A DNA stretch of 64,000 nucleotides, from assembly GCA_050173015.1 (NCBI GenBank), contig JBFXLE010000008.1:96584-160583 (forward strand), read 5' to 3'. Source of the DNA: Calditrichaceae bacterium (GTDB lineage: Bacteria > Calditrichota > Calditrichia > Calditrichales > JBFXGD01). Positions 32,548-53,608 of the stretch are shown here, one piece after another. Each line of letters opens with the position of its first letter. Within the stretch, counting starts at the first letter, position 1. The notes beneath the pieces are model-generated. The model saw only the letters and a program-made list of their open reading frames with translations. It was not told the origin of the DNA and did not search any database. Both the position numbers and the translations under genes were made by a program.

Positions 32548-33558
32548 TCAGATGATCGTCCAGCCATATTTAATCAGAGCAATCAGAAAAGTGTAGGCTA
32601 TAAAGCAGAATAAACTTGTTTTAATAAAGCGGATTTTCATCATTCCGGCTATATCAGAAATACTATTATTTTTCGAAAAGAACACCATTAAACCGGCGGA
32701 CATCCCCGTCAAACCGCCGGTGAAAAGTAATCCATAAAGAAGGTAACCCACATGTAGGTAATTTGCCCAAAGCATATCAAAGGGACAGTGATGCGAAGGC
32801 ATCGCGTAAATGTATTTTGAAAAATGAACGATAAGCGCGTCCAACGCGGCGATAAACAAGAGTGGTGAAAGCAGACCCGTCACATAACCGGTTCGCTGAA
32901 GAAGTTTGGTCTGCCGCTTTTTCAAGCCAAGCACAGCGAGTATGACATAGAAAATCAGCAATCCGTAAAAAAGATATACTTTTACTGATTCATTATCGCT
33001 GCTGTCAAAAGAATTTTGTGACATCGGGTTGTCACTGAATGAAATACTGCAGCAGGTAGTGATGATATTTGGATTAATATTAAGATAGTACTGAACTTCC
33101 GAATAAATTTGTATAAATATAAACGGGATCAGTACCAGCAGCAGATAAAATTTTTGACGGGTGAGTGGAAATTCAGGGATCTTCTGATCAAGATTATTTA
33201 TAACAAGCCATAACCCGTAAATAAAAAATCCGCCTATCTTGAGGTAAAGCGTCATCCAACCAAAACTATTTGTATTTAAAGCGCCCGTTCCGCACATGGC
33301 GCCCTTGATCAGCGCCGGGAAATGATCATTTACGGTCACGACAAAAAGCAGGAGCGAGATCATCTGAAACCCGAACACATAATTCATCACGGTCGATACA
33401 AGATGTGTTTTTCTTTCCAGCAGAAGCTGTTCATCCGTCGATGACTGAATATCCCATTTTCGGGCGATCTGAACTCCGATGCCGACCGCATAGACGGAGA
33501 ACACAAGCACAAAGATATCTCCGATCAGCATTACGATGACCCACAGATCGGTCAGCAT
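32548..33558 (-). CDS. Polytopic membrane protein with Cys/His motifs, last gene of the nos-linked cassette
   Basis: About 8 hydrophobic segments; GAMCGTG, TTCCS, HHCPFD; abuts the upstream ATPase. Confidence 0.75.
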   Translation of the reverse strand: MLTDLWVIVMLIGDIFVLVFSVYAVGIGVQIARKWDIQSSTDEQLLLERKTHLVSTVMNYVFGFQMISLLLFVVTVNDHFPALIKGAMCGTGALNTNSFGWMTLYLKIGGFFIYGLWLVINNLDQKIPEFPLTRQKFYLLLVLIPFIFIQIYSEVQYYLNINPNIITTCCSISFSDNPMSQNSFDSSDNESVKVYLFYGLLIFYVILAVLGLKKRQTKLLQRTGYVTGLLSPLLFIAALDALIVHFSKYIYAMPSHHCPFDMLWANYLHVGYLLYGLLFTGGLTGMSAGLMVFFSKNNSISDIAGMMKIRFIKTSLFCFIAYTFLIALIKYGWTII

Positions 33559-34251
33559 CTATTCATGCTCCCCATCGACCAGGTGACCGTCCCTCATACA
33601 AATGATGCGGCCTATCAGATCCGATTCATACACAAGGGGATCATGAGTGGCAATGATCTGCGTTTTACCCTGTTCTTTAAGATCCCGGAAAATATCCATA
33701 ATCTGTCCGGATAATTTTGTGTCAAGATGAGCAGTCGGTTCGTCAGCCATGATAATTTCCGGATCGGTAATCAATGCCCGGGCAATGGCCACGCGTTGAG
33801 CTTCGCCGCCGGAAAGTGTATCAATTTTAAAATTCAGCCGGTGAGAAATATCCAGACTTTCGGCGATCTTCATCGTCCTCCTGTTGAGTTCTCCGATATT
33901 TGGTCCCGAGGGAATCATTGGGATAATGATATTCTGCGCCGCCGTCAGTCCGCTGATCAGATTAAAATTTTGAAATATAAATCCAATATGTTGTCTTCTG
34001 AACAAGGTCAGGAATTTCTCTGTCCATTTTGAGACCCTGTTTCCGAGGATAATCACATCACCCGAAGTCGGTTTGGCCATGCACCCCAGCACGGCCATTA
34101 AAGTTGTTTTGCCTGATCCGGAGGGACCCTTGAGCGCTATGACTTCTCCTTTTTTTATATTTAAGTCAACACTTCGAACAGCATCGACCTCATTGACTTT
34201 ATCCTTATTAAAAGTTTTTGACAGTTTTTGAGTCACAATCATATCAGGCAT
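33559..34251 (-). CDS. ABC transporter ATP-binding protein (LolD/MacB-type)
   Basis: GPSGSGKTT, IGFIFQNFNL, LSGGEAQRVAIARAL, ADEPTAHLD, ATHD. Confidence 0.92.
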   Translation of the reverse strand: MPDMIVTQKLSKTFNKDKVNEVDAVRSVDLNIKKGEVIALKGPSGSGKTTLMAVLGCMAKPTSGDVIILGNRVSKWTEKFLTLFRRQHIGFIFQNFNLISGLTAAQNIIIPMIPSGPNIGELNRRTMKIAESLDISHRLNFKIDTLSGGEAQRVAIARALITDPEIIMADEPTAHLDTKLSGQIMDIFRDLKEQGKTQIIATHDPLVYESDLIGRIICMRDGHLVDGEHE

Positions 34252-35407
34252 GCATCACCTCCGAAGGGTCAATGACCGCCGCTTTCCAGGATGGTATCAT
34301 CGTCGCGGCGATATAAGGCACAACAGCAAGAACCAGAATCAGAAGCACACTGCCGATTTGCACGACCGGCAGCAGATTAAAATCGGGATAAATTACCGAC
34401 CAGCCGACTAAAAACGGCTTTAACAAGGGCGCCTGAAATATAAAATCATGCGCATACGCGCCGATTAATCCAATAAGAGTCGCGGTTAGCGAAATGGATA
34501 TACCTTCCCAGAATTTTAGTAAGAGTATATCCGATATTTCCCAGCCGACAGCCTTTAGTATTCCCAGTTCTTTTTTTGCTTCTGCTGAGATACCGGAGGC
34601 TCTTTGCCAGGCCAGAATCATATAGGCAAAAAGGGAAATCAGCAGTCCGAACATAAACAAGCCCCCTCGATACCCAAACAAAGCTTCGTAGGTTGATTTT
34701 ATTTCCGATTTTGTAACAACTCTCACGGAAGCAAAACGGCGGTCAATTTTGCGGCTGATATTTTCTATTTCATCATCATTGAAAACATAGACGGAAAGAT
34801 CGCTGTAATCTTTTTGTTTCAATCCGACAATCTTTCGCGCGTCTTCTATGGGAAGGATGATCAAATCCCTGGTCAGCAGATCCGATGGTGAGCTAAACCG
34901 GCCGGTTATCGTAAAATTATGCAGATTTTCATCCGTGTCAAAAAGGCTCAGGTTGTCCTGAAGTCTCAGGTAGTGCGTCTCCATAAAACCGGTTCCGCAA
35001 ACCGCTATTCCCCGGTCACCGGGTTGAATTCCCTTTCCTTCCACTATGGTGAGATCTCCGGTAAGAGAATCAGCTCCGATTAAGGTAAACACTCCGCCGG
35101 TGGGTGAATCAAAATAATACCCCCAAACGCGCGGAACAACCGATTTAATACCTCGTATTTCGCTGATACTCTGCGCAAGACTGTCCGGTATTTCAACCAT
35201 TCGGCCCGCTTTGATCTTCTGCACCGTAATATCGGGCGCGGTGCTAAGCACCTGCTGTGTTTCATATGACAGCGACTGGATAAAAAAGACAATGGAAGCG
35301 TAAGCAAATACAACCACCGAAAATATGGTGATAACTCCAAGATGCCATTTCCAGTTACGCCGCATTGATGTTAAAAAGAATGCCAGAATAAATAAATGCC
35401 GTCTCAT
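34244..35407 (-). CDS. FtsX/MacB-like ABC permease
   Basis: One TM, a large periplasmic domain, then three TMs; KKELGILKAVGW; IPSWKAAVIDP. Confidence 0.85.
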   Translation of the reverse strand: MRRHLFILAFFLTSMRRNWKWHLGVITIFSVVVFAYASIVFFIQSLSYETQQVLSTAPDITVQKIKAGRMVEIPDSLAQSISEIRGIKSVVPRVWGYYFDSPTGGVFTLIGADSLTGDLTIVEGKGIQPGDRGIAVCGTGFMETHYLRLQDNLSLFDTDENLHNFTITGRFSSPSDLLTRDLIILPIEDARKIVGLKQKDYSDLSVYVFNDDEIENISRKIDRRFASVRVVTKSEIKSTYEALFGYRGGLFMFGLLISLFAYMILAWQRASGISAEAKKELGILKAVGWEISDILLLKFWEGISISLTATLIGLIGAYAHDFIFQAPLLKPFLVGWSVIYPDFNLLPVVQIGSVLLILVLAVVPYIAATMIPSWKAAVIDPSEVMHA

Positions 35408-35772
35408 TTCTTATTCCCGTTGATTGGAATTTTGTTTTTAGTGACAACAGTTTGTGAAGATTGCATCATTTTTACCTGCGAAGGCGGCCAAAAAAACGTG
35501 GATGTCGGAAAATGATCCAAAAATCCGGGGATATCCTGAAAAGCCGCGGCCGGTTCCGGCAGAGCAATATGTCGGGTATGTCTTGATTCCGTTGTCACAC
35601 ACATATCGGTAAGATGCAGCAGCCTGACAATCTCAGCTTCCTCAACCAATCTCTGCTCATTCGATACTACCGCGCGACTGTGCAGAACGAGAATGGTGAA
35701 AATCACAATCAGCATAACCGTTAAAAAAGCATACATTTTCAGAATTATAAAATCACGATCAAGACCGGTCAT
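35404..35772 (-). CDS. Small membrane-anchored hypothetical protein
   Basis: N-terminal TM, LTDMCVTTESRHTRH motif; 4-bp overlap with the permease. Confidence 0.7.
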   Translation of the reverse strand: MTGLDRDFIILKMYAFLTVMLIVIFTILVLHSRAVVSNEQRLVEEAEIVRLLHLTDMCVTTESRHTRHIALPEPAAAFQDIPGFLDHFPTSTFFWPPSQVKMMQSSQTVVTKNKIPINGNKK

Positions 35773-35781
35773 TATCTACTC

Positions 35782-36636
35782 TCATTTGTCGCTAACCTTC
35801 TTCATGAATTCAATTATTTCAACGGATGTCAGTAACTTCCCACGGTGAATTTTGATAAATTCTTCAGCAATCATTTTTTCTTTAAATGCCAGTACGGGCA
35901 TTTTTCCCGCGTTCAGAAGCACATTACTGTTTATTACAAACCATGCTTTTTCCATTCCGAAGGGAAAACCCGTTGTAAAATTTATGACCCTGATATTGCT
36001 TAAATTACCGCCGTCCATTTTAATCTTCGCGCATTTAAGACCACATGCGTTAACGATCCCTTTATCCGTGATTATTTCCAGGCGTGAAAGTTGTTTTTCA
36101 TATACGGGTTGCTCACAGTGGTAGCAAACCCCGATTTTTTCCCCGGGCTCAGGATAAAACACTCTTGAATAATCGTTCACACTGTTTTCTCTAGCCAGTT
36201 TTAGGATCGATTCCGTTCCGAAAATTGATCCGCCATGCTGACTGACAAAATAAACAGCCCTGTCTTGCCGGTCAAATACCATCACAGGAAATATAGCGTT
36301 CGCCGGATAATGATTTCCCCCAAGAACAAAAATCGCGTTTGCCGCGGAAATCATCCGGCCCGAATAATATTCTTTTACATACATGTCAGCATACCGGTCT
36401 GAATTGTCGATAAGTTTTATCGCGCATGGCAGCGAGCAGGCATATTCCGGATCCTTCCCCTTAAGAATCAAATCAACTTTGGTCATCATATTCTCATAAA
36501 TATCTGCTCCGCAATTTATACATGTACTGATTTTTTTACCCAGATCAGGTTTGAAGAATTTATCAGCTTCCCCTGAAATGGCGCTTGCGGCCATGACAAA
36601 CATCAGAAAAACGATATACCATTTCTTATATGACAT
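35782..36636 (-). CDS. nosL: Secreted tandem NosL-like protein (two domains)
   Basis: Signal peptide; CINC...CSLPC and CYHC...CGLKC; each domain ends with a NosL-like AxFV...F...A..F...GG/RG tail. Confidence 0.72.
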   Translation of the reverse strand: MSYKKWYIVFLMFVMAASAISGEADKFFKPDLGKKISTCINCGADIYENMMTKVDLILKGKDPEYACSLPCAIKLIDNSDRYADMYVKEYYSGRMISAANAIFVLGGNHYPANAIFPVMVFDRQDRAVYFVSQHGGSIFGTESILKLARENSVNDYSRVFYPEPGEKIGVCYHCEQPVYEKQLSRLEIITDKGIVNACGLKCAKIKMDGGNLSNIRVINFTTGFPFGMEKAWFVINSNVLLNAGKMPVLAFKEKMIAEEFIKIHRGKLLTSVEIIEFMKKVSDK

Positions 36637-37441
36637 TGGTAACCTCCTGTGAATGATATGAATTTACCGCGGCAGCAGCCGCTCCTATAGCCGTCGTAAC
36701 CTGGGGCTGTCTGCATATTACCACCGGCCTCATCAGTTCATCTTCCAACGCCGCCAGCATACCTCTGTTCAAGGCGGCGCCGCCATCAAACAGGATGACA
36801 TCTTCGACCTTTACCCTCCCCGCTAAACGGGCAATCCTTCTCGCTATGGAATAATGGATGCCGGCCGCGATCTCGCTTTTGCTATGTCCCGCGGCCAGAA
36901 GAGAGATGATTTCTGATTCCGCGAAAACAGCGCATGTGCTGTTTATCGGCAATGGCTGATCAGCGCTTTGAAAATGTAGTTCGGCAAATTCGGAAAGATC
37001 TACTTCCAGATTTCTTGCGGCCATTTCCAGAAACCGTCCCGTCCCGGCCGCGCATTTATCGTTCATTACAAAATTGCTCACATGACCATCAGGATCTAGT
37101 TCAATCACTTTGGCATCCTGTCCGCCAACATTTATAATCGTCCGTATATTACCCGATTCACGGCATGTCAGAACCGAACCCATGGCGTTGGCTGTTATTT
37201 CATTGATTGATTCATCACTGTCCTTAAACAGCTTCCTTCCATAGCCCGTTGAGACCGTGTAAAGCAATTCATCCCTGTTCAGGTTGTTTTTATCCAGCAG
37301 CGTCTGCAGCCCGTCCGCCGCGTTTTTATTAAAGCTGCTGCCGGTAGGAGATGTGCCGGTGGCAATTAATTGAAGTGAATCATCAAGCAGGGCAATTTTT
37401 ATCGCGCTTGATCCGATATCAATTCCCGCGTAATAAGACAT
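36626..37441 (-). CDS. ATP-dependent [4Fe-4S] activase (HgdC/BcrAD/DCCP-R family)
   Basis: GIDIGSS, STGYGR, GGQDAK, MNDKCAAGTGRFLE, INSTCAVFAESE. Confidence 0.92.
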   Translation of the reverse strand: MSYYAGIDIGSSAIKIALLDDSLQLIATGTSPTGSSFNKNAADGLQTLLDKNNLNRDELLYTVSTGYGRKLFKDSDESINEITANAMGSVLTCRESGNIRTIINVGGQDAKVIELDPDGHVSNFVMNDKCAAGTGRFLEMAARNLEVDLSEFAELHFQSADQPLPINSTCAVFAESEIISLLAAGHSKSEIAAGIHYSIARRIARLAGRVKVEDVILFDGGAALNRGMLAALEDELMRPVVICRQPQVTTAIGAAAAAVNSYHSQEVTNVI

Positions 37442-38738
37442 TCTCTGTCTCCGAATGGTTTTTCCGTTTTTTCAATTTTATTGATTCGAGAAACGCTTCT
37501 ATTCTAGTTGATAACTGTCCCGCGTCTTCAGGGCTGTAATCGGTTTCAATATAAAGCATGGGTATTCCTTCATCGGAAAGCAGTCTGCCTGTTTTACGTG
37601 ATTCCAGTTCATAGAGCTGACACCCCGCGAATGCCTGATAAATGACCCCGTCCACCGCAAACTGCCGGACATTGTCTAACAACTTCCGGAATCTGTCTGA
37701 ATTCGGAGTGAAATTCGGACAGGTCCCCGGCTTAAGATAGCGGTCCGCGATCGCCGGAATCATATCATATAAATACCACTCATCCACGGCAACAGTGTCA
37801 TAAAGCAAGCGCGTGGTCGAACAAAATTCTTCTGTAACCACAATTCCCCCCAGTTTTTCGATTAAAACGGGAAGTTTCATGTTTGGAAATATTGACGGCG
37901 ATCCTGTCAGAAGAATTCGCGGAGCTCTTTCAGCGGCGACAGCGCGCCTTTCAATTTTTCTTGCCTCCATCTCATCATTCAGGCGGGATAAGGCCGCGGT
38001 CCATGACATGATATCATCAAAGAAAAAGGTGTTTGATATGAGTATGGCGTCTTTTCCGCCAATAACCGGCAACGTTTTGCGATTTTCATTGAACCTTCGG
38101 AACTGATTTTGCGCCTCAGCCACCATTTTTATGGAGTCGCGCAATCTGCTTCTCGTTATCCTTTGGCCGGTCACTTTTTCAAGCTTCAGAACCAGTTTTT
38201 TGACTGCCCCCTGCCAATAGAAACGGGCCTCTTCACTATCTTTTGTCGGCGGTACTTCGAGAGTGTAAAATTCGGCGTCAATGTCTTCGACGACTTCCGG
38301 GAGCTTCTTTTTTTGATCACAGGTTGTTGGATTTATAATCAGATCCGGCTTTACATTTCGAGCGAATGTATTCGCGTATAGTGAGCCCAGAGTGGATTTA
38401 ATCAATGGACATGTTTTGGCGGGAAGAAATTCGGCGCCTATGGTATCTGTCGCATAAGCCCCGGAACATATCCGAACCGGGATCGCTCCCGCCGCATAGA
38501 TTAGTTCCAGCGGGACGTGAATACACATTGTCGCGATGACTTTTTTTCCGTTGGGATTAAATCCTGAACTATCGGAATACCATTTCAGCTTATCATAAAA
38601 ATATTCCATCGCTTTCAGATTCTCCGGAAAATCATCCATGATCTCCCGAAGGCTCTTATTTGATTCCATACGAAGATGAACCGCCGCCGTTTTTTTGATG
38701 CGCTCTTTTCTGTTTAAAGTGTCGCTCATTTCTCCCAT
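37419..38738 (-). CDS. 2-hydroxyacyl-CoA dehydratase-superfamily protein, probable double-cubane cluster protein (DCCP)
   Basis: Single subunit with Cys72/110/140 (ATMC, TCPLIKS, TTCDQKKK) and Cys306/340/373 (EEFC, TCPNFTPN, AGCQLY); C-terminal IETDYS..D.GQLSTRIEAF. Confidence 0.8.
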   Translation of the reverse strand: MGEMSDTLNRKERIKKTAAVHLRMESNKSLREIMDDFPENLKAMEYFYDKLKWYSDSSGFNPNGKKVIATMCIHVPLELIYAAGAIPVRICSGAYATDTIGAEFLPAKTCPLIKSTLGSLYANTFARNVKPDLIINPTTCDQKKKLPEVVEDIDAEFYTLEVPPTKDSEEARFYWQGAVKKLVLKLEKVTGQRITRSRLRDSIKMVAEAQNQFRRFNENRKTLPVIGGKDAILISNTFFFDDIMSWTAALSRLNDEMEARKIERRAVAAERAPRILLTGSPSIFPNMKLPVLIEKLGGIVVTEEFCSTTRLLYDTVAVDEWYLYDMIPAIADRYLKPGTCPNFTPNSDRFRKLLDNVRQFAVDGVIYQAFAGCQLYELESRKTGRLLSDEGIPMLYIETDYSPEDAGQLSTRIEAFLESIKLKKRKNHSETENVLLRGN

Positions 38739-39730
38739 CCGGTCACCTCCGATTTTTCGGTAACATTAAATCTTTTAAAAAATCCTTTTTCAGTCGATGT
38801 AAATACCGGCATGGTCAGAATCGACACCTTAAGACAATCGTTCTCAGGGCAGGCTTCAACGCATTTAAAACACATCATGCAGTCATCCCGTACAATATTT
38901 TTACTTTCAATATCATCCGCGATTTCTTTGATCCCCACATCACACACACGATGACAATTTCCACAACGGGTGCATTTCGATCCATCCTTGGTCAGCCTCA
39001 GTAATGATGCTTTTGAAAATATATATTGCAGCGCGCTCATTGGACAGAAAAAACAAAAAAACCGCTTTTTCACAAACGAACCTGTGATGAACAGACCGGT
39101 CACAATGAGTCCCAGTGTGGACATAATGATGGTCGTACCCGAACTGAAATCTACCGCGAACTGCGATGTATCACCTGAAAATAAAGGCAAAACCGTTCTA
39201 CCCGGACAAACCTGGCAAAACGGAGCGGACAGATCATGTGAAAATTTTGGAAGGCCGAAAAGTGAATTGCTCATCCCTAAAGGAATCAGAATAAGGAGAA
39301 TCAACAGAATGTATTTTATCTTCTTCAGATGTTTAAAGGTTAGTTCATCGTATTTCGAAAAACGGACACCCGTTTTCTTTCGTAATCCGGTAATCCAGTC
39401 CTGAATCGTACCCAGAGGACAGATATACCCACACCAGGCTTTGTTAAAGAAAATGAAAAGGATAAAGAATACAACAATTCCGTTCAGCAAAGCTATACCG
39501 CGCCAGCTAAACAGGCTGCTCCAGGTTGTATGCAACCTGTGTTGCAGGCTTATCAGGAAACAGGTCCCTGCGCTGCCCTGATTATAAGGACAGGCAAAAG
39601 TCGGGATCTGGTCACTTATGTGGATAAAATAGTACCCGCCGTAAATCAGCACCAGAAATGCCGCTAGCTGAAAGTAAAATCTGAACCGGCTGATATTCGA
39701 AAAATTGATATAATCGCTGATTCTATTCAT
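38726..39730 (-). CDS. Membrane-bound 4Fe-4S protein (NapH/NosH/YccM-like)
   Basis: WCGYICPLG, FCQVCP, FCFFCPM, CTRCGNCHRVC, CMMCFKCVEACP; 4-5 TMs. Start moved to MNRISD. Confidence 0.85.
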   Translation of the reverse strand: MNRISDYINFSNISRFRFYFQLAAFLVLIYGGYYFIHISDQIPTFACPYNQGSAGTCFLISLQHRLHTTWSSLFSWRGIALLNGIVVFFILFIFFNKAWCGYICPLGTIQDWITGLRKKTGVRFSKYDELTFKHLKKIKYILLILLILIPLGMSNSLFGLPKFSHDLSAPFCQVCPGRTVLPLFSGDTSQFAVDFSSGTTIIMSTLGLIVTGLFITGSFVKKRFFCFFCPMSALQYIFSKASLLRLTKDGSKCTRCGNCHRVCDVGIKEIADDIESKNIVRDDCMMCFKCVEACPENDCLKVSILTMPVFTSTEKGFFKRFNVTEKSEVTGWEK

Positions 39731-40703
39731 TGAATGTGACCTCCCGGTACGGTACTTTTTTCCGCTCGCGATAGTAAAAAACAGCAACGGCAGCCAGGGA
39801 AAGCGCGAATACAAAAACGATCATTGCCCAGACCGCGGAAGAATACATCATTTTTGACGGAATATAACTTTCCGAAAATGTGGCAGTATACCGGACGCGC
39901 TTATAGGAACTGCCGTCAAATTCACCGTTTTCGGTAATGTCATGTTCGGATACAATCAAAAAATTAAATATTTTTTGTTTCTCAAATTCAGATAACGTTG
40001 AAAAATAGTCCTCCGGTATTTGAAATGTCACTTCTCCGTTTTTATCCGATTCTGCTAATTTAGCCCATCCGGTTTGGGTGATGAGTTTTACCTTTGAACC
40101 TGAAACCGGGGTTCCGTTAAGATTTAATTTGAAAGTTACTTTGTCACCGGACTGAATAAAGGTATGGAAATCCTCCCGGGGAAGCCTGTTTCTTATGACT
40201 TCATATGGGATATGACTTTTCAGGTCCTTGGGTTGAAGATTCGCAAGCACGTGTTTGTGCCCGTTTTGACATTTATGACTCAACCGTTCCGCTTTCGCGC
40301 TGATTATGTGCAGCGTATCTCCGGATACATATTTTTTCGTAAGATAAAGATTGTAGAATCCCTCCAGATTGCCGTTGTATATTATGGTCCCTTTCTCAAA
40401 CTCACAGTCAATCAATTTATTTTCAGGTGAGAGGAGATGGACTCGCGCATTTACGGATGGCGGGCCGGTTAAATATTCTGATTCTCCGGGCAGTGTCCCC
40501 GCCCGTATCCATTGTATGATATGAAAGACTCCCCTTTTACCGTTCCCCGGGACGGAAGAGATTTTATGCATTCCGAACGGCTGAATTTTCTTATCCGCGT
40601 CTTTCGGCGGAACATTTGATATCCAAAAAGTATTTTCCGCTTTTAAAGACGCGCCCTGAAAAATCAGAAAAATCGCAAAACAATAATAAATATATTTTTT
40701 CAT
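39723..40703 (-). CDS. Periplasmic DUF4198-like protein with C-terminal membrane anchor
   Basis: Signal peptide; HKCQNGHKH; GDKVTFKL..NGTPVSG.KV...SDKNGEVTF...H...Y.ATF pattern; C-terminal TM followed by basic residues. Confidence 0.6.
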   Translation of the reverse strand: MKKYIYYCFAIFLIFQGASLKAENTFWISNVPPKDADKKIQPFGMHKISSVPGNGKRGVFHIIQWIRAGTLPGESEYLTGPPSVNARVHLLSPENKLIDCEFEKGTIIYNGNLEGFYNLYLTKKYVSGDTLHIISAKAERLSHKCQNGHKHVLANLQPKDLKSHIPYEVIRNRLPREDFHTFIQSGDKVTFKLNLNGTPVSGSKVKLITQTGWAKLAESDKNGEVTFQIPEDYFSTLSEFEKQKIFNFLIVSEHDITENGEFDGSSYKRVRYTATFSESYIPSKMMYSSAVWAMIVFVFALSLAAVAVFYYRERKKVPYREVTFNE

Positions 40704-40769
40704 CCTGTCTGCCTTTCACTCAGGAAGTCTGAAAAATCTCTCTCACCATTTAAACGACCTCATTCCGGA

Positions 40770-43001
40770 TTAAAATTTTAATCCCGCCGTTATGGTGACA
40801 TTAACCGGGTAACCGGGATAGTAAGATTCACTCCAGACGCCCCTGCTGTAACTGGCGTAAGCCCATGTAGCGTAATTTGTATCAAATACATTGTTTACAC
40901 TCAAAGACGCGAAATAACGCCGTGTTTCATATGACAGTTTGGTGTTTACAATACCGTATCCGCCATATAGATGTACATTTTCATTGTCCATATAATATTT
41001 ATCTACCCATTTCCAGCTTATATCCGCGCTCAACCCTGAAGAATGAACATAGCGCAGATCGGCTCCAACCTGATGGCGGGGTGTTTTCCTGAGATAATTA
41101 TCATTGTAATCCTGGGAATTATCAAAACGGGCCTCTAAATACGCGTAATTCAATGAGAGTATCAGAGATTCCACTAATTTCAGATTTCCCGCAAATTCAA
41201 CTCCTTTATGAATGGTCTCACCGACATTCTCGTATTTTCCTGAAATCTCATCCTTGATAATCTGATCGGTAAAGTTCATCGCAAATAAGGAAACCTGGTA
41301 ATCAAATCTCCGTGATATCTTTCCCCGCGCGCCTATTTCATAATTCGTCAGATACTCGGATTTCAAATCCGGATTGGGTACCACCCCATATCCGCCAATA
41401 AATAACTGAGAAATTTGCGGAGGGTTGAAACCCCGTCCGACATTGGTGTAGATAGTTAAAAATTTGAATGGATTATAGGATAATGCCAGTTTTGGACTCC
41501 AGGCGCTGATTGTGGCGACATCCGAAGTATTTCCGTCGTCGGGGAGACGATCATCCCAATCATAATGAACACGGTCGTATCTGAGTCCGAATGAAAGCAT
41601 CAGGGGATTGGAAATCTGAAAATCATTTTGCAGGTAATACCCATTGATATCATAGATACTTGTTCCCTTATCCGTCATATCCGTCTTGACACCAAATTCG
41701 TCAAGATCAAATGTTTCGGAATCACCGTTTTCCCGCTCAGCAGTGATTCCGCCGATAAGAGAATTTCTTTTCCCAAGGATAAAAAATGATCGCTGCAGTC
41801 TTATTTCACCGCCAAAAAGATTGATGTCATCTTCGCTGGTGAAGGTATCGTTATAACCGCCTTCATCCATGCAATTTCTGAAAAATAAATTGGAATTCAG
41901 GTCGAATCCGGATGAAAAATGTTTTTTATGTGTGATTCCAAGCCTGAAAAACTCCTTTTTGCTTCCCGCGAATTTATTTTCGTTTGCTGTTTCGCGCGCT
42001 TCGAACTGCTCCTTAGAGAGAGAACCGGGAAAATCGGTATCACTCCGGATATAGTCCAGCGACAGCATCATATTACCCAATCGCTCGTAATCGGTCTGGA
42101 GTTTTGCGGCGAATTTATCCGCGTTGTATGAATTTCTGTCTCTGTACCCGTTTGTGGAATGATCCGACGCGCTGAGATATATCCCGTACTGGCCTAATTG
42201 GCCGCCGGCGCTCATAGTAAATTTTTTTAAATCGTATGCGCCGAATGATGATTCTATTTTGCTTTCAAATTTTTTCGGGGCCTTTTTTGTGACGATATTG
42301 ATAACCCCCGTAATACCATTTGGACCGTATAATGCTGATACCGGACCCTTCAAGACTTCAATCTTTTCGATATTTCCAAGATCAATCCCTTCAAAATCAA
42401 CCCTTCCCATTGCTTCATTAATGGAAATCCCGTCAACCAGTACTAAAATTCCCCTTGTCACATGAGAATGCAGTCCCACACCGCGGAAACTCACCACATT
42501 ATATTCTGAATGAAAACGGTCTTCAGTAAAAACCCCCGGAATTTTCTGAAGCATGGTCTCCACATTTCTCATTTCGGCCTGTTTTATATCATCCATTGAG
42601 ACCAGATATACCGAGGCCGGAATATCTTTTATCTCTTTTTCCATTTTTGTCGCCGTTACAACGACTCTTCCTTCTGATTCATAAATTATCGGATTAAGAC
42701 CGAAATTTATTGTTGTAGTTTCACCTGCATTCACCCGGATGTCTTTTCTCACCACTTTTTCATATCCGATCAACAATGCTTCAAGGGTGTAAACGCCGGG
42801 TTTGACATTACGAATTTCGTAATTACCGGCATAGTCGCTTACATCCCCGAGATATTCGCCTGTAATGTATATTTGTGCTTCCTGGAGTACGGTATTTGTT
42901 AAATTGTCATTCACATTCCCTTTAATGACACCGAATTCCTGAGCAAAAATTATATTTGCGAACAGAATCAGTAAAAACCCCCCAGATGTGAAATATTTCA
43001 T
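40770..43001 (-). CDS. TonB-dependent outer membrane receptor with N-terminal carboxypeptidase-regulatory-like domain
   Basis: VVVTATK, ILVLVDG, IEKIEVLKGPVSALYG..G.TGVINIVT, NPDLKSE...NYEIG, VNNVFD, terminal Phe. Confidence 0.93.
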   Translation of the reverse strand: MKYFTSGGFLLILFANIIFAQEFGVIKGNVNDNLTNTVLQEAQIYITGEYLGDVSDYAGNYEIRNVKPGVYTLEALLIGYEKVVRKDIRVNAGETTTINFGLNPIIYESEGRVVVTATKMEKEIKDIPASVYLVSMDDIKQAEMRNVETMLQKIPGVFTEDRFHSEYNVVSFRGVGLHSHVTRGILVLVDGISINEAMGRVDFEGIDLGNIEKIEVLKGPVSALYGPNGITGVINIVTKKAPKKFESKIESSFGAYDLKKFTMSAGGQLGQYGIYLSASDHSTNGYRDRNSYNADKFAAKLQTDYERLGNMMLSLDYIRSDTDFPGSLSKEQFEARETANENKFAGSKKEFFRLGITHKKHFSSGFDLNSNLFFRNCMDEGGYNDTFTSEDDINLFGGEIRLQRSFFILGKRNSLIGGITAERENGDSETFDLDEFGVKTDMTDKGTSIYDINGYYLQNDFQISNPLMLSFGLRYDRVHYDWDDRLPDDGNTSDVATISAWSPKLALSYNPFKFLTIYTNVGRGFNPPQISQLFIGGYGVVPNPDLKSEYLTNYEIGARGKISRRFDYQVSLFAMNFTDQIIKDEISGKYENVGETIHKGVEFAGNLKLVESLILSLNYAYLEARFDNSQDYNDNYLRKTPRHQVGADLRYVHSSGLSADISWKWVDKYYMDNENVHLYGGYGIVNTKLSYETRRYFASLSVNNVFDTNYATWAYASYSRGVWSESYYPGYPVNVTITAGLKF

Positions 43002-43086: not shown

Positions 43087-43572
43087 CTATTTTTGTTTGT
43101 TCTTTTCAGCCATTCGCTCCATTCTGATTGCTGTGGCGGTTTTTATCATTTCTAAACCGGTTAAATAGGTACCGCCGTAATGCCCGATAAAAAATTCAGC
43201 ATTTTCACTGCTTCTGAATGAAAAAGTCGGCATCATGGCATAAGCGGGGAGAATGTTGCTGCCGACCACAAAACTGGCATCGTTCATTTCTATCAGATCA
43301 CCCGTATAGAAATCCTTTACTTTTACGGAAGTGTATTTAGTTTTGTCCATCAATGCTGTCGCGCAGCCCACGGCGCAGGCATGTGTTACCGGGCCCCCGT
43401 CAAGTGACAATTCAATCCGAGTCCACATCTTTTCATAAACATCCATTCCGCAAATGGGGCAGGATCCGATTTTATCACCCAGATCCGGCTTCAGAACCGC
43501 GCCGGCGTTTTGTGAGTACCCGATAGCCATAAATAATAAAATGCAAATTATGATTAATTTTATCGATTTCAT
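43087..43572 (-). CDS. nosL: NosL-like secreted protein (4-Cys variant)
   Basis: Signal peptide, CPICGM, HACAVGC, DASFVVGS, AMMP, AEFFIGHYGG. Confidence 0.75.
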   Translation of the reverse strand: MKSIKLIIICILLFMAIGYSQNAGAVLKPDLGDKIGSCPICGMDVYEKMWTRIELSLDGGPVTHACAVGCATALMDKTKYTSVKVKDFYTGDLIEMNDASFVVGSNILPAYAMMPTFSFRSSENAEFFIGHYGGTYLTGLEMIKTATAIRMERMAEKNKQK

Positions 43573-43615: not shown

Positions 43616-44101
43616 TTACATTTCCTGTCCAACAGACAGTCTCATCAACAAATCCCATGTGACTTCGTCAAATTTTAACATTTTACTACCCTGATGATCC
43701 TCCCTGAATTCTTCCGCGTCCGTTTTTGTTTTTAGCGGCACCAGTTCATTCCCCATCGGCCCAAGAATATCGCTGTCAATCACAAAAAAGGCGCTGTCGG
43801 CTTCTACCCACTGCAGTTCATAATATTCGCGAACATATATTTTCACCGGTTTTTGTTCAGCGGACCCTCCGTATTTTTCCGGATGCAGAAAATATTTAAA
43901 CATATCTTTTGGACCGTCAAAAAACTTCACCATCCCATCCGCATAAATCATTTCAGCAATCCATTTCGGATAGGGGTGAACAAACATGGCGCAAACCGGA
44001 CAGCGATCCTTCTCACCGGGCATTTTTGGATTTTGATCAGCAGCCTCCGAAACAAAAACAACCAGGAGAAGCGACAAAATGATTATTTTGATTTTTTTCA
44101 T
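43616..44101 (-). CDS. nosL: NosL family copper chaperone
   Basis: CPVCAM, FFDGPKDM, AFFVIDSDILGPMG, AEEFREDHQG. Confidence 0.85.
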   Translation of the reverse strand: MKKIKIIILSLLLVVFVSEAADQNPKMPGEKDRCPVCAMFVHPYPKWIAEMIYADGMVKFFDGPKDMFKYFLHPEKYGGSAEQKPVKIYVREYYELQWVEADSAFFVIDSDILGPMGNELVPLKTKTDAEEFREDHQGSKMLKFDEVTWDLLMRLSVGQEM

Positions 44102-44164: not shown

Positions 44165-44686
44165 TCAGGGACCGTTCTGACTTGCTGTCTTATTTTCAGT
44201 TCGGCGGCCAATTCTGTCAAAAATATATTGTTCTGTAAGCCACCCGACATAAACCTCGAGAATCACACCTTCCCTGCTTAGTACAAAAGTAGTGGGGATT
44301 CCTTTGATTTTGTAGCGCTTCGCGGTTTTTGCGTACTCATCCACCAGCATTGGAAAAGTCACGTTAAATTCAATCTGAAAATCCTCCACATGATATTTGC
44401 TCTGTCCAACATTTACGCAAAGAATTTCCGCCTGCGCCATATCGCCAAACTTCTCATACGAGTTCTGCATCACCGGAAACTCGGAACGACATTCAGAGCA
44501 CCAATCCCCCCAAAAATGAAGAAGGACTATTTTCCCTTTATAGTCATTTAATGATACTTCCCTGCCGTTTACGTCATTTAGAAGAAAATCAGGCGCCTGC
44601 TCACCGATTTCGGGCATTCTATCACCGCATCCCATCATCATCATGAGAAAAAGGGTGATGATCCCCGTCTCTGAGATTTTTTTCAA
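44165..44686 (-). CDS. TlpA/ResA-like thiol-disulfide oxidoreductase lipoprotein
   Basis: Lipobox-like MMGC, APDF.L, FWGDWCSECRSEFP, GIPTTF; TTG start. Confidence 0.88.
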   Translation of the reverse strand: MKKISETGIITLFLMMMMGCGDRMPEIGEQAPDFLLNDVNGREVSLNDYKGKIVLLHFWGDWCSECRSEFPVMQNSYEKFGDMAQAEILCVNVGQSKYHVEDFQIEFNVTFPMLVDEYAKTAKRYKIKGIPTTFVLSREGVILEVYVGWLTEQYIFDRIGRRTENKTASQNGP

Positions 44687-45165: not shown

Positions 45166-45999
45166 TTACAAATCTTTGTTTGAAAATATTTTTATCGCCA
45201 GCGCCAGCGGCAGACCGCCCCATGCCAGCAATGCCGTAAATAATACCAGAAATCCGCTTCCCGTTCCGCCTACAAACTTTAATACCGCCCCTGCCGTAGG
45301 CCCGAACATGATCTTTCCGCCCAGAACAAACAAGGTTCCTACCCTTACAAGATCAACCGGATTTCCAAAAAGCATTCCAAAAAGCACATTACGGAGTACG
45401 TTTCCCTCAAAACTGGAAGCCAGCCACATGACAAGCAAATCATAAAGAATAACAAATATGAACCAGACAAATAAACCGATACTGAGGGCTTGTGTTCTTT
45501 TCATAGTGATCACACTTATCAGCGCGGAAATACTTAAAAATATCAACCCTAAAACAAGACTCAGCAAAACAAAAGCGATATACGCCGTCAGATCACTCGC
45601 GCCCGCTCTCCATCCGATGACCATACCGGCGGCGCCGAAACCGATACCTGTGGAAATCACTATAGCGAGAAACAAACCAAAATACTTCCCCAGCAGATTT
45701 TCTGATCGCAATACCGGCTGTGATATCTGAAGCTGCAGTGCTCCCGGTTCATCCGACGCAAAGCTCATTGCTCCCAGAATTAGAGCTACCAACGGGACAA
45801 GGTAAAGATTCAAATTTAATAAACTCGCTGTTGTGCGGATAAAATCCTGGAAACCGGTAAATCCTGATATTTTTGTGCCCGCGAAACTGATTGTAAGAGC
45901 GATTACAGCAAATACCACCGAAAAAATCATCACCCAACGGCTACGGATTACCGAGAGTAATTCCTGCATGGCAATTGAATTAATTATTTTAATATTCAT
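45166..45999 (-). CDS. nosY: NosY ABC permease
   Basis: ASLLNL.LYLVPLVAL, SQPV.R...LGKY, LFVWF.FV.LYD, GNPVDLVR; nos context. Confidence 0.88.
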   Translation of the reverse strand: MNIKIINSIAMQELLSVIRSRWVMIFSVVFAVIALTISFAGTKISGFTGFQDFIRTTASLLNLNLYLVPLVALILGAMSFASDEPGALQLQISQPVLRSENLLGKYFGLFLAIVISTGIGFGAAGMVIGWRAGASDLTAYIAFVLLSLVLGLIFLSISALISVITMKRTQALSIGLFVWFIFVILYDLLVMWLASSFEGNVLRNVLFGMLFGNPVDLVRVGTLFVLGGKIMFGPTAGAVLKFVGGTGSGFLVLFTALLAWGGLPLALAIKIFSNKDL

Positions 46000-46759
46000 A
46001 GGATTCCTTTGTCTCTTCTGCCAGATGCGCTCCCGTTACAATGAGCCTGCCAATTATTTTATCTGAATTATTCTCAAAAATATCAAAGCGGTCGCCGGGC
46101 TTATCAACCTTTAATCTGTACATTCTTGATTCCCCGTATGGAATTTCCATTTGCAATTCAGGATAATTCAGGATACTGATTGACGCATCCTTTTCTGTCC
46201 GGTTCGATATACGAATCTGTACTATCTGATTCAGAGTTGCTTCAAATACTTCCGGAGTGAGCTTATTCTGGATATAATCCGCCCGGACATATAAATCCGG
46301 TTCCTGATATTCGTCCCACATTTTATTCCATGAGAGAATTTCGCCCTCGCGGATTGTATTTTTAAATTTCAGCGCTGCCGCCGAATCGCTAAAAGTCGTA
46401 ACATTAAAGTCCATGACAGGAGTGCGATAATCACCCCTGACAAAGAGAGCGCTGTCCGCGGCAATCCAGTTTTTTGTGTCAAAGGCAATCACATAAAATT
46501 TGAGTATATTATTTTTCTCCCTCACGTGGCCGCCGGAAAAATACTGTACCATGCAGATGGGATGATCAAATTTTATGATCTCTCCATTTATTTTGATTAA
46601 TTCAGCGGCATACTCAAAATCAAGAATCTCCATCCGGCAGGTTATACAAATATCACCCTTTTCAACCGGTACGGGCTCACCCGAAATGCTCCCGCATCCC
46701 GTAATCAATGAAAAGATGGCACTTAATATGGCCTGACCGATCCATTTTTGTATGCTCAT
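45989..46759 (-). CDS. nosL: NosL lipoprotein with extra C-terminal beta-rich domain
   Basis: Lipobox ITGC, DICITCRMEI, KFDHPICM, TPVM; about 100-aa C-terminal extension. Confidence 0.82.
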   Translation of the reverse strand: MSIQKWIGQAILSAIFSLITGCGSISGEPVPVEKGDICITCRMEILDFEYAAELIKINGEIIKFDHPICMVQYFSGGHVREKNNILKFYVIAFDTKNWIAADSALFVRGDYRTPVMDFNVTTFSDSAAALKFKNTIREGEILSWNKMWDEYQEPDLYVRADYIQNKLTPEVFEATLNQIVQIRISNRTEKDASISILNYPELQMEIPYGESRMYRLKVDKPGDRFDIFENNSDKIIGRLIVTGAHLAEETKESYEY

Positions 46760-47664
46760 TCCTGAATATTCTCCGAAAATATCCTGTTGTAAACATATTC
46801 CAGCGTCGGGTCTTCCGTCCAGAAACGCTCTATTTTTGCCCCGGCTTTACGCAGAATTTCCAGCAAATTAGGACGTTTGTCGGCTTCAACAACTACCCGG
46901 AAAATGTCACCTTCGATTTCAACTTCCCTCGCTCCGTTCGCAAGAAGCAGATCCTTGTATTCCGGTTGTGTATTAAGAAATACAATAATCATTCTGGCAT
47001 CGGCGTCAGATGTTCTCTTTAATTCAAGCGCGTCTTTTACGGCAATCAGCCGGCCGTCTTTCAGAAGAGCGATTCGGTCCGCCAGTTGTTCCGCTTCGCT
47101 CAACAGATGTGTGGCCATGACAATAGTGCATTTTCTGGCTTTAATCTCCCTCACGAGTTCTTTAAACTTGGCCACGCCCTGCAGATCAAGGTTTATGGTT
47201 GGCTCATCAAGGATGTAGACGTTAGCCGGAGACAATTTCAATAATCCTAGACCAAGCCTCTGAACCATTCCCCCTGAAAACACCCCGACAAATTTATCCG
47301 TTGATCCGTTCAGATTGATATCTTTTAAAATCTCATTAATATGAGTCTGCGGTTGTTGTCTTATTTTCGAGTGATACAAAAGAATCTCTCTGGCCGTCAA
47401 ATTATCCGGAAATGACAGCCTCTGGGGCAAAAACATCATATTTTTTTTAACTTCCCTTGGATATTTCCAGACATCGGTGTCATTGACTAAAATCTGTCCG
47501 GTTGTGGGCTTGATAAGCCCAATGATCATTTTTAATAATGTCGATTTTCCGCTGCCGTTCGGACCAAGCAGAGCAAAGGTCTCTCCGGGTTTTATGTCAA
47601 GATCGACGTTATTAACAGCAAGCGTATCTTTGAATTTTTTTGATATATTTCTGATCTTTATCAT
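46756..47664 (-). CDS. nosF: NosF ABC ATPase
   Basis: GPNGSGKST, FSGGMVQR, LDEPT; lies between nosD and nosL/nosY. Confidence 0.85.
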   Translation of the reverse strand: MIKIRNISKKFKDTLAVNNVDLDIKPGETFALLGPNGSGKSTLLKMIIGLIKPTTGQILVNDTDVWKYPREVKKNMMFLPQRLSFPDNLTAREILLYHSKIRQQPQTHINEILKDINLNGSTDKFVGVFSGGMVQRLGLGLLKLSPANVYILDEPTINLDLQGVAKFKELVREIKARKCTIVMATHLLSEAEQLADRIALLKDGRLIAVKDALELKRTSDADARMIIVFLNTQPEYKDLLLANGAREVEIEGDIFRVVVEADKRPNLLEILRKAGAKIERFWTEDPTLEYVYNRIFSENIQE

Positions 47665-47680
47665 AATCCGTCCGGGATAA

Positions 47681-49102: not shown

Positions 49103-49172
49103 TTTTTCCCATCATTTTAAACAGATTGATTTTATACTATTATAAGAGACTCAATCAATAAAACCTGAAATC

Positions 49173-49601
49173 TTATTTCCGCCAGGTTTCTTTCTCTCCG
49201 AGATTCTGCTTCTGGGCGATTTGCCCTCTCACCGCGGCAACCCCTGCCTTTATCATCCATTGAAGCGCCTGATCAAGATCCTCCGTCATCTGATAAGTAC
49301 AAACCTTCTTTTCATCCATATCTTTCTTCACTTTTTCCATAAAGGCCAGCGCTTTTTTCTCCCACATTTTAGCATCTTTAATCTCTTCAAATACGAGAGT
49401 ATTCATTTTTCTGGACTCAACATCCTTTATGACAGAGTCAACGATGTTTTGTGTCGCTGTGCATTCGTTATATTTTGACTCACATTCCTTCATATCGAAT
49501 TTTTTTACCTTGTACTGTGCCTGAACCGGCGCGACAAGAAAGATGCCAAGAAATAACATCAGCACCATCCAGGCGGGATTATATAATTTAAAACCTTTCA
49601 T
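49173..49601 (-). CDS. Hypothetical secreted helical protein in the nos core
   Basis: Signal peptide ending VQA-Q; 3 Cys and 7 Met in the mature part; starts 3 bp after the nosB stop. Confidence 0.7.
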   Translation of the reverse strand: MKGFKLYNPAWMVLMLFLGIFLVAPVQAQYKVKKFDMKECESKYNECTATQNIVDSVIKDVESRKMNTLVFEEIKDAKMWEKKALAFMEKVKKDMDEKKVCTYQMTEDLDQALQWMIKAGVAAVRGQIAQKQNLGEKETWRK

Positions 49602-49604
49602 TAT

Positions 49605-50249: not shown

Positions 50250-50308
50250 TAGTAACTCCTTAAAAATGCCTTTACCGGGCTCCTTCTGCAAATGATCAAC
50301 ATCCTGAA

Positions 50309-53591: not shown

Positions 53592-53608
53592 TATATATAC
53601 TCCGCCTA

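Follow-up and report, generated by a model that had tools for sequence, protein, structure and literature searches.

According to a review by the group that solved its structure, the double-cubane cluster protein (DCCP) reduces acetylene, hydrazine and azide in vitro, and two papers by the same group state that its physiological function is unknown; our literature search found no newer publication that assigns one. What, then, does such a protein do when its gene lies among genes for envelope proteins, behind a nitrous oxide reductase (nos) operon? The question is raised by a stretch of 64,000 nucleotides (nt) from the genome of a Calditrichaceae bacterium (the window, to whose whole length all window positions refer; the source genome is G000, and L-numbers denote loci from our scans), in which ten minus-strand open reading frames (ORFs) occupy 32548..43001. 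The initial annotation had read these ten genes as one cassette that joins outer-membrane uptake to ATP-driven low-potential reduction and Cu/S delivery, possibly for the nitrous oxide reductase NosZ. We are instead nearly certain that they belong to two modules that are conserved independently, the first lying within the second, and that the DCCP is part of the nested one, here called module A.

The protein encoded at 37419..38738 is very probably a DCCP, with an [8Fe-9S] content predicted from its sequence. Its best solved relatives were the DCCP chains of Carboxydothermus hydrogenoformans (7yyl_C, E 2.4e-69; 6eno_A, E 8.3e-69), the second-best relative being a BzdN-type chain (8s02_B, E 5.3e-27) and a further match a HadC-type chain (E 7e-18), and it came barely over the cut-off of the NCBIfam double_cubane profile (Table 1). 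Seven Cys (C72, C91, C110, C140, C306, C340 and C373) each face a Cys in both C. hydrogenoformans chains and are invariant in 71 of 71 relatives. Two sets of three Cys had first been counted; all six of these ligand positions are present and map onto the solved protein, but the conserved number is seven, with Cys91 added. The motif given by the DCCP review has seven Cys, of which six are ligands of the [8Fe-9S] cluster and one (Cys94) is its close neighbour; Cys91 is this seventh, non-ligand residue. The layout of a single chain with a partner ATPase was also borne out, as the DCCP gene overlaps by 23 nt that of an archerase-type ATPase, which is well over its TIGR00241 cut-off. In the Protein Data Bank (PDB) this ATPase matched the HadI activator (4eht, E 1.7e-55) and the DCCP reductase DCCP-R (7yyl_E, E 2.2e-38), and its C130 and C170, invariant in 47 of 47 sequences, fit the pattern of two cluster Cys per monomer, which the 2022 DCCP-R paper places at C115 and C152. 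We rejected the identity of a 2-hydroxyacyl-CoA dehydratase or benzoyl-CoA reductase (CoA, coenzyme A): the source genome encodes only one HGD-D homologue, and the equivalog profiles lay far under their cut-offs (BzdN, 112.7 against 453.8 bits; HadC, 86.2 against 700 bits). As had been noted from the start, the ten genes include no CoA-transferase (by Pfam) and no second HGD-D subunit, and G000 as a whole has none of the latter either.

A scan of one genome per species returned 168 DCCP relatives, and the best 80 loci (49-90% identity) were examined, a gene being counted as present when tblastn with the window protein gave a coverage of at least 40% and E ≤1e-5. Besides the DCCP, which was the query (80/80 loci, median identity 53%), a NapH-like membrane polyferredoxin was matched in 78 loci (median 55%), the ATPase in 76 (59%), a DUF4198-like protein in 75 (32%) and a TonB-dependent receptor in 51 (27%). 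All four core genes, that is, those other than the receptor, occurred together in 71 of these 80 loci of other species, so the arrangement is far beyond chance, and gene-order maps gave one fixed order of receptor, DUF4198-like protein, NapH-like protein, DCCP and ATPase. These maps came from a simple ORF caller, with some antisense errors in G+C-rich loci. Module A is thus made up of the DUF4198-like, NapH-like, DCCP and ATPase genes, usually with a TonB receptor in front, which stood directly upstream of the DUF4198-like gene in at least 39 of 57 evaluable loci. Directly downstream, at least 31 of 60 evaluable loci carried a membrane protein of the DsbD_2 family (PF13386), which was found in none of the Bacteroidota- or Calditrichota-type loci; in several loci ExbB, ExbD and TonB genes then follow, the ExbD and TonB clusters being present in 11 loci each. 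No inner-membrane importer of the usual type, such as a binding-protein ATP-binding cassette (ABC) system or a major facilitator superfamily (MFS) protein, was conserved in the module A loci.

By their record titles, carriers of module A belong to the Bacteroidota, Calditrichota, Neomarinimicrobiota, Thermodesulfobacteriota, Nitrospirota, Nitrospinia and Spirochaetia, and further to the Rhodocyclaceae (Azonexus, Azovibrio, Azospira, Dechloromonas), Sedimenticolaceae, Thiodiazotropha, Thiohalomonadaceae, Sulfuricellaceae, Gallionella and Methylococcaceae. Since a DCCP is encoded in only 3 of 86 Calditrichota genomes, module A is patchy and probably mobile between lineages. The literature search found nothing that links DCCPs to TonB receptors, NapH-type proteins or nos; the supplementary tables of two papers (eLife, PMC8238504, and the Zcp paper) may list similar clusters. 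The earlier proposal of an undescribed system joining a DCCP to envelope uptake therefore survives in part: the link of the DCCP to envelope genes is conserved in 80 species with no report of it found, but the ten genes are not one unit. Some loci carry module A genes more than once. A Sedimenticolaceae locus (L076:1-15811) has two consecutive copies of receptor, DUF4198-like, NapH-like and DCCP genes, and in L055 a second set of receptor, DUF4198-like and NapH-like genes lies about 8 kb downstream of the first module. In three loci of Lutibacter / Flavobacteriaceae (L010, L011, L018), module A lies within an island of three TonB receptors, each preceded by a 125-amino-acid (aa) Cys-rich membrane protein of no family; the island also encodes a 412-aa BNR-repeat protein and a 281-aa protein whose YtkA-like match is weak.

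The second module became apparent from the last four of the ten genes, which turned up in no more than three or four of the 80 module A loci. We aligned five relatives of the 336-aa membrane protein that ends the series and scanned metagenome contigs, which gave 78 loci of what we call module B. A DCCP of at least 50% identity was present in only two of these, L083 (from the window's own species) and L157, and with this the reading of the ten genes as a single cassette falls. NosZ and NosD were each found in 0 of the 78 metagenome loci, so the suggested co-occurrence of the 336-aa protein with nosZ was not seen either. Among 49 sources (48 loci of at least 5 kb plus the window), the 336-aa protein cluster was represented in 48, the ABC ATPase in 38, the FtsX permease in 34, a NosL cluster that includes the window's canonical 161-aa NosL (NosL161a) in 23, and the small 122-aa protein and the thioredoxin cluster, which includes the window protein 44165-44686, in 18 each. 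The genes recur in the order thioredoxin, NosL, small protein, FtsX, ABC, membrane protein, with variable neighbours (cytochrome c / FeS / NrfD sets, Rieske-cytochrome b, a cytochrome c assembly protein, MobA/MobB, rhodanese, DsbA). In the window, a second 161-aa NosL (NosL161b), module A and a tandem NosL of 284 aa (NosL284) lie between the first two and the remaining four genes of this order. Because both split parts cluster with intact module B, we conclude that module A, flanked by two extra NosL paralogues, is nested inside module B, and the unit does not end at 43001 as first drawn: the thioredoxin (44165-44686) and NosL (43616-44101) upstream of that point belong with the last four genes.

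Module B is a separate periplasmic unit that probably handles Cu(I) or thiols. Its thioredoxin falls below the cut-off of the NCBIfam ResA subfamily (131.1 against 170 bits) and has C63 and C66 invariant in 19 sequences; C34, C37 and M39 of NosL161a are invariant in 23 sequences, and D56, T66, H68, D80, H87, F88 and P89 of the small protein in 18. The 336-aa protein bears the motifs G-A-M-C, C-C and P-x-H-x-C-P, with C169, C170, H256, C258 and P259 kept in 100% and C89 in 98% of 48 sequences, and its ESM Atlas neighbours are all named 'hypothetical protein'. Neither it nor the 122-aa protein matched Pfam or NCBIfam; Pfam found a family for the other 8 of the 10 proteins of 32548..43001. The tandem nature of NosL284 holds, its halves matching each other at E 2e-13; both have Cys-x-x-Cys, without the Met of canonical NosL. 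Full-length homologues of NosL284 occurred only in its own genus or species (L002, 79%; L082 and L083, 94%), with a weak partial match in L079 (27%), and NosL161b was matched at 40% coverage or more in only two of the 80 loci, both weakly (L002, of the same genus, 30%; L079, 26%). The literature search found nothing relevant on a combination of NosL with FtsX. In two Thermodesulfobacteriota metagenome-assembled genomes (MAGs), a distant relative of the 336-aa protein (about 20% identity) adjoins module A without FtsX-ABC (L016:10554-11582, L017:3867-4859), and in L016 it stands where the ATPase gene would be; the metagenome locus L157 has the same pairing (DCCP 61%, membrane protein 23%).

Having separated the modules, we considered the envelope proteins of module A. 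The DUF4198-like protein has a signal peptide and a C-terminal membrane helix, after which a conserved basic/acidic tail is placed in the cytoplasm. Its assignment to the family, weak by sequence (the Pfam match is below cut-off), is confirmed by the predicted fold: an AlphaFold2 model from 55 sequences (predicted local distance difference test score, pLDDT, 87.1; predicted template modelling score, pTM, 0.82) matched Zcp of Neisseria gonorrhoeae in Foldseek (E 2e-10) and, in VIA-align, chain 9mhj_B with Z 18.9 at a root-mean-square deviation of 2.7 Å over 201 residues. The Ni-bound DUF4198 protein 9gcb_A followed with Z 16.5, unrelated rows beginning at about Z 6. The anchored DUF4198-like protein of the initial annotation is thus upheld by fold and not by the sequence profile. 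A candidate metal site is formed by H46, H143, C145, H149, E168 and H180, each of them kept in 88-98% of 58 sequences. Solved members of the family bind Zn, Cu, Co and Ni, to judge from the titles of PDB entries and from the Zcp paper, which describes DUF4198 proteins as periplasmic metal-buffering binding proteins.

The NapH-like protein is not NapH proper, because it scores 76.3 bits for TIGR02163 under a cut-off of 213 (NF007013, 74.4 against 234), and no gene for a NapG-like or NosG partner is present in module A. All of its 16 Cys are kept in 66-67 of 67 sequences. Eight of them form two cytoplasmic [4Fe-4S] motifs; of the further pairs, C128/C132 follow helix 2 and C254/C257 follow helix 4, and the helix order predicts C75/C85 and C200/C203 to lie in periplasmic loops. 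For the TonB receptor, the nearest solved chains were YncD (6v81, E 1.2e-44) and PqqU (9c4o, E 9.4e-44). Copper receptors of the OprC/NosA type have a conserved copper site of Cys, Met and His; TIGR01778 was not among the best 25 NCBIfam matches of the window receptor.

Does the DCCP contact any of these proteins? With matched alignments of 56 loci, the predicted complex of DCCP with the NapH-like protein reached an interface score (ipSAE, interaction prediction score from aligned errors) of 0.71 (runs 0.71, 0.72 and 0.70), against 0.00 for the best of three controls, with a partner pLDDT of at least 75 and at least 59% of contacts common to the runs. In calibration, 58 of 80 solved complexes and 2 of 110 mismatched pairs passed the mark, a yardstick that is only rough here because our own alignments were used. 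We know of no comparable complex, so the score is unlikely to stem from the model's memory. On the NapH-like side the predicted interface comprises residues 146-157 of a cytoplasmic loop, 279-290 and 317-323, which cover both [4Fe-4S] motifs, and 342-351; on the DCCP side it comprises 167-169, 204-214, 314-337 and 348-355. Segment 314-337 lies between the ligands C306 and C340, and within it D314, D319, E320, D325, M326, D332 and K336 are invariant or nearly so in the subfamily and mostly different in the solved protein. In the 2022 paper, DCCP-R sits against N111 of the solved DCCP, a residue that aligns two positions before the ligand equivalent to C110. From the modelled contacts we infer that the ATPase and the NapH-like domain would approach opposite halves of the double cubane, which fits the expected through-flow of electrons. 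On these grounds the DCCP is probably coupled physically to the NapH-like protein.

We therefore propose, with a probability of roughly 0.5, that module A sends ATP-driven low-potential electrons from the DCCP to the membrane polyferredoxin, where they would act on metal captured in the periplasm; a role in metal acquisition as such we regard as an even bet. In the first step, which is established for the family, ATP hydrolysis by the ATPase would drive low-potential electrons into the [8Fe-9S] cluster. The DCCP, bound to the NapH-like protein at the latter's cytoplasmic [4Fe-4S] domain, as predicted complex and conservation suggest, would pass these electrons on, and the NapH-like protein might lead them by way of the eight other invariant Cys to its periplasmic side. 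At that side they could reduce or release a metal or metal complex that is brought by the receptor and held by the DUF4198-like protein. This role is not specific to nos. A fuller version, which we put forward tentatively, would make module A an energy-coupled envelope machine in which an ATP-driven [8Fe-9S] reductase on a NapH-type conduit sends very low-potential electrons to the periplasmic side and reductively frees metal from forms that could not otherwise be used in sulfidic, anoxic habitats, the metal being held by the His/Cys DUF4198 protein and being copper in nos-linked lineages of the FCB group (Bacteroidota, Calditrichota and allies).

Several points weigh against this proposal. 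Its support in this organism consists of sequence comparison and structure models, and the score of the complex is the confidence of a model and no measurement. The model of the NapH-like protein is of middling confidence (pLDDT 72.4) and had no PDB match in Foldseek at E ≤0.001, hence no solved relative; to our knowledge, electron transfer across the membrane through NapH-type proteins has not been shown structurally. Reducing Cu(II), Ni or Zn needs no potential as low as that of a double cubane, and a DCCP that is catalytic in vitro may itself be the final enzyme instead of a relay. No Cys, His or Met column is conserved at 85% or more in 42 module A receptors, and a receptor was missing directly upstream in 18 of 57 evaluable loci, so TonB-dependent import is frequent and not obligatory. 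Nor did regulatory sequences point to a metal: an Rfam search of 7 of the 80 loci gave no riboswitch and only a 5' ureB sRNA (L047) and a selenocysteine tRNA (tRNA-Sec; L021), and neither Fur nor Zur boxes were enriched within 350 nt ahead of the receptor gene (39 loci scanned; Fur in 8 against 7.5 in shuffles, Zur in 12 against 9.7). The window itself gave no Rfam match.

The strongest competing explanation, which we consider unlikely, is that the DCCP is itself the terminal catalyst and reduces in the cytoplasm an imported small organic or organometallic molecule (a cofactor, tetrapyrrole or metallophore) that the DUF4198-like protein hands inward, the NapH-like protein serving only as membrane anchor or as electron donor to the ATPase. 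It agrees with the reduction of small molecules by DCCP in vitro and with the organic substrates on which its relatives benzoyl-CoA reductase and 2-hydroxyacyl-CoA dehydratases are described to act, and equally with a receptor that lacks conserved metal-ligating columns and is nearest to YncD and to PqqU, the transporter of pyrroloquinoline quinone (PQQ). A preprint, moreover, reports that other DCCPs are statistically linked to a selenoprotein-rich import locus and to SelD, and suspects the import of an organometallic compound. Yet the module has no conserved importer of the usual type in the inner membrane, both cluster motifs of the NapH-like protein face the inter-ligand segment of the DCCP in the model, which resembles an electron-transfer contact more than an anchor, and the DUF4198 fold has so far been described only as a binder of metal ions. 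There is no selenoprotein or SAO-type gene in module A; of the system in the preprint, only SelD was seen here, encoded twice in the source genome, and one selD gene (G000:C2:247845-248780, L161) has a TGA codon in frame, as a selenocysteine-containing SelD would. In a Thermodesulfovibrio MAG, module A is followed after about 3 kb by a tRNA-Sec gene (L021:14610-14703, 73.7 bits), which may be coincidence. Among the literature matches listed, no paper on the function of YjiM was found.

A second explanation, to which we give a low probability, is that of the initial annotation: the whole set would serve nitrous oxide reductase, supplying Cu or S for its CuZ site or reactivating it reductively. 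In the window it finds support, since the genes lie behind nosZ...nosY in the same orientation, no gap reaching 100 nt, and four NosL-domain genes surround the set. Module A is also physically linked to nos in four lineages of the FCB group. Besides the window, these are a Lentimicrobiaceae locus (L006 with its extension L163), in which module A lies between nosD and nosG-nosH-nosF-nosL-nosY behind two NosZ paralogues, a Bacteroidota MAG (L009/L164), in which it is divergent from a nos operon of the same type, and a Lutibacter locus (L080), with nosL/nosY about 4 kb away. This amounts to 4 of the 11 FCB-group loci that could be judged (at least 13 kb long, window included), by rough estimate far above chance for 20-kb neighbourhoods in genomes of 3-4 Mb. 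With a threshold of E ≤1e-10, a NosZ homologue was present in 17 of 19 Bacteroidota, Calditrichota and Neomarinimicrobiota carriers. Outside these groups, however, the figure is 18 of 61, so that 35 of the 80 carrier genomes (21/50 plus 14/30) have NosZ and none was found in 45, absences that are soft because many of the genomes are incomplete MAGs. Among 86 Calditrichota genomes, 37 have a NosZ over the cut-off; they include all 3 DCCP carriers, and the other 34 lack a DCCP, so NosZ works without it. Module B, for its part, lacks NosZ or NosD in all 78 metagenome loci.

The nos link is thus real in the FCB group and not general, and a role in CuZ maturation keeps the local linkage in four lineages and loses the wider claim; module A as a regular nos accessory was rejected on these same counts (NosZ in 35/80 carriers, DCCP in 3 of 37 NosZ-bearing Calditrichota, linkage only in those four lineages). 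Copper supply to NosZ is plausible for the source organism, and the local cargo would most plausibly be copper for NosZ because both modules sit behind nosDFLY; that copper is indeed the metal there is a tentative assignment. Between 31500 and 51400, promoter-like sites numbered 53 (shuffles, 44.7 ± 7.1) and terminator-like sites 30 (shuffles, 20.2 ± 4.4); no site between nosL and the receptor was convincing, so the scan is uninformative on co-transcription. The literature search for '2-hydroxyglutaryl-CoA dehydratase' with nosZ found nothing relevant. As a separate observation, in several Bacteroidota MAGs (L164:1397-6327, L163, L165-L169) two tandem NosZ paralogues, 29-38% identical to the window NosZ, head a nosD-nosG-nosH-nosF-nosL-nosY operon; the first (730-750 aa) has only a weak nos_propeller match (31.1 bits), and the second (795-900 aa) has a C-terminal cytochrome c domain in L164.

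About as improbable is a third explanation, by which module A exports low-potential electrons at the expense of ATP to keep periplasmic metal or thiol centres reduced, without import and with the DUF4198-like protein as a periplasmic redox carrier. The loci that lack a receptor directly upstream speak for it, as do the CcdA/DsbD-type protein (DsbD_2) alongside, in the window the thioredoxin and the Cys-rich membrane protein, the four invariant NapH-like Cys in loops predicted to be periplasmic, and NosR-type relatives, which are thought to feed periplasmic enzymes (eLife 2021, PMC8238504). Import is nevertheless indicated by the receptor directly upstream in 39 of 57 loci and by ExbBD-TonB in some loci, and the DUF4198 proteins characterised so far are described to bind metals rather than to carry electrons. 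Finally, that the DCCP/ATPase pair is a chance neighbour of unrelated envelope genes is highly improbable, given the four genes together in 71 of 80 loci across many phyla, the overlapping stops and starts in the window, and a predicted complex at 0.71 against 0.00 for controls.

The positions of the two modules and of their context are collected in Table 1. The tight packing first described was found throughout the ten genes, whose stops and starts overlap or abut, with a 66-nt gap between receptor and DUF4198-like gene and a 9-nt gap between NosL284 and the small 122-aa protein gene. NapH-like and DCCP genes overlap by 13 nt, ATPase and NosL284 by 11, the small protein and FtsX by 4, and FtsX and ABC ATPase by 8, and the ABC ATPase abuts the 336-aa protein. 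The NapH-like protein most likely starts at the ATG at 39730 rather than at the TTG at 39814, because the alignment of homologues begins there; this start gives an 8-nt overlap with the stop of the DUF4198-like gene. From 52273 downwards on the minus strand, nosZ and two unknown genes come first, then nosD, nosF, a gene with a NosL domain, and nosY (Pfam NosD, ABC_tran, NosL and ABC2_membrane_2 for the last four), followed by an unknown 125-aa gene, the thioredoxin gene, the two 161-aa NosL genes and then the ten genes. No nosR, nosG or nosH was found within the window. Upstream of nosZ, 52359-57926 encodes on the same strand a multihaem cytochrome c, a cytochrome b, a Rieske protein, a flavoprotein (645 aa, with Fer4_20, Pyr_redox_2 and Fer4 domains) and a MerR-type regulator. 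The 125-aa protein between nosY and thioredoxin (44770-45147) has an N-terminal helix and a Cys-rich stretch and belongs to no family; its likeness to the 125-aa proteins that precede receptors in Bacteroidota was rejected as unsupported, because BLASTP gave E 1.5.

Table 1. Genes of modules A and B and their context in the window, in order of transcription from the nos operon
Feature	Position	Strand	Evidence
Context: clade II (Sec-type) nos operon, nosZ..nosY	45166..52273	-	TIGR04246 823.4 bits; TIGR04247 (nosD) 381.3 bits
Module B, gene 1: ResA/TlpA-like periplasmic thioredoxin lipoprotein, CxxC	44165..44686	-	Pfam AhpC-TSA 94.8 bits
Module B, gene 2: canonical NosL, 161 aa (NosL161a), Cys-x-x-Cys-x-Met	43616..44101	-	Pfam NosL (PF05573) 110 bits (cut-off 24)
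Extra NosL paralogue, 161 aa (NosL161b), directly upstream of TonB receptor	43087..43572	-	Pfam NosL 28.8 bits (cut-off 24)
Module A: TonB-dependent receptor, 743 aa, N-terminal CarboxypepD_reg	40770..43001	-	Pfam Plug + barrel
Module A: DUF4198-fold periplasmic protein	39723..40703	-	AlphaFold2 fold; Pfam DUF4198 (PF10670) only 22.8 bits (cut-off 34), residues 184-231 only
Module A: NapH-like membrane polyferredoxin, four helices	38726..39730	-	Pfam Fer4_5 + Fer4_10
Module A: probable DCCP, 439 aa	37419..38738	-	Pfam HGD-D 309.7 bits; NF040772 350.2 bits (cut-off 350)
Module A: archerase-type ATPase (DCCP-R / HgdC type), 271 aa	36626..37441	-	BcrAD_BadFG 180.7 bits; TIGR00241 231.6 bits (cut-off 125.4)
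Tandem NosL, 284 aa (NosL284)	35782..36636	-	Pfam NosL 45.3 bits (cut-off 24), residues 37-144
Module B: single-pass membrane protein, 122 aa, T-E-x-R-x-T-R-H ... H-F-P	35404..35772	-	No family; 18-source cluster
Module B: FtsX/MacB-type permease, periplasmic core domain	34244..35407	-	FtsX 31.4 bits; MacB_PCD 28 bits
Module B: ABC ATPase, MacB/LolD/FtsE type	33559..34251	-	ABC_tran 111.7 bits
Module B: polytopic membrane protein, 336 aa	32548..33558	-	No family; own alignment

How does this arrangement compare with systems already described? With the C. hydrogenoformans DCCP and DCCP-R (6eno, 7yyl), the window pair shares fold and family, the seven aligned motif Cys, a single subunit type and an adjacent archerase with both cluster Cys. 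It differs in belonging to a constant gene set that includes a membrane polyferredoxin and a predicted metal-binding protein of the periplasm, in the DCCP segment 314-337, predicted to bind the polyferredoxin and mostly not conserved in the solved protein, and in an ATPase closer to the HadI activator than to DCCP-R. In class I benzoyl-CoA reductase, too, an ATP-driven archerase feeds a double-cubane cluster, which is said to act there as a relay, and the Bzd-type N subunit is the second-best solved relative of the window protein; the window set, however, has no second HGD-D subunit or CoA-related gene, and its proposed acceptor would be a membrane protein instead of an aromatic substrate site. 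The [8Fe-9S] cluster of that enzyme has been reported beside a [4Fe-4S]-OH2 site (Nat Commun 2025, PMC11971306).

NapH/NosH/NosR-type proteins and the window NapH-like protein have in common the Fer4_5 membrane domain, Cys-x3-Cys-Pro motifs and a cytoplasmic di-cluster ferredoxin domain, and NapH-like systems have been described as modular transmembrane electron-transfer devices, a proposed conduit between cytoplasm or membrane and extracytoplasmic redox partners (eLife 2021, PMC8238504). Module A departs from them in lacking an FMN-binding (flavin mononucleotide) domain and a NapG or NosG partner, in the four extra invariant Cys in two loops predicted to be periplasmic, and in a predicted cytoplasmic partner, the DCCP, that is undescribed for the NapH family. 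Zcp (9mhj-9mhn) and 9gcb share with the window DUF4198-like protein the fold and the periplasmic location, and like it are often encoded beside TonB receptors, as far as described. Identity to Zcp is only about 11%; whereas the Zcp paper describes a soluble homodimer with a zinc site of three His, the window protein has a candidate site that includes a Cys, a C-terminal membrane anchor and a conserved tail predicted to be cytoplasmic.

Module B resembles NosDFY-NosL copper delivery in pairing a NosL chaperone with a periplasm-acting ABC machine and thiol-redox proteins, and is unlike it in having an FtsX/MacB-type ABC part in place of NosFY, and in the absence of NosD. The FtsX-ABC and thioredoxin genes beside the Campylobacter P19-Ftr1 iron system presumably resemble module B as well; FtrD of the FtrABCD iron system and Campylobacter Cj1660-1665 may be further likenesses. 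The 336-aa protein has a Campylobacter protein as a structural neighbour in the Atlas (TM-score 0.87), and the literature search found nothing on FtrABCD with a polyferredoxin. Gram-negative P19 clusters with a thioredoxin-like gene are mentioned elsewhere (eLife 2021, PMC8238504).

Taken together, one DCCP subfamily is linked, by genes kept together in 80 species, with a membrane polyferredoxin and with a periplasmic protein predicted to bind metal, and this gives a first testable clue to what DCCPs are for. Module B is a second, separate and uncharacterised NosL-containing system. If the fuller version of our proposal is true, double-cubane proteins would gain their first physiological role, and a conduit of the NapH/NosR type its first known electron source in the cytoplasm. 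Module A also bears on the old problem of what feeds the cytoplasmic iron-sulfur domain of the NapH/NosR family. It would also be a candidate route by which N2O reducers and sulfur-cycling bacteria acquire trace metals in sediments.

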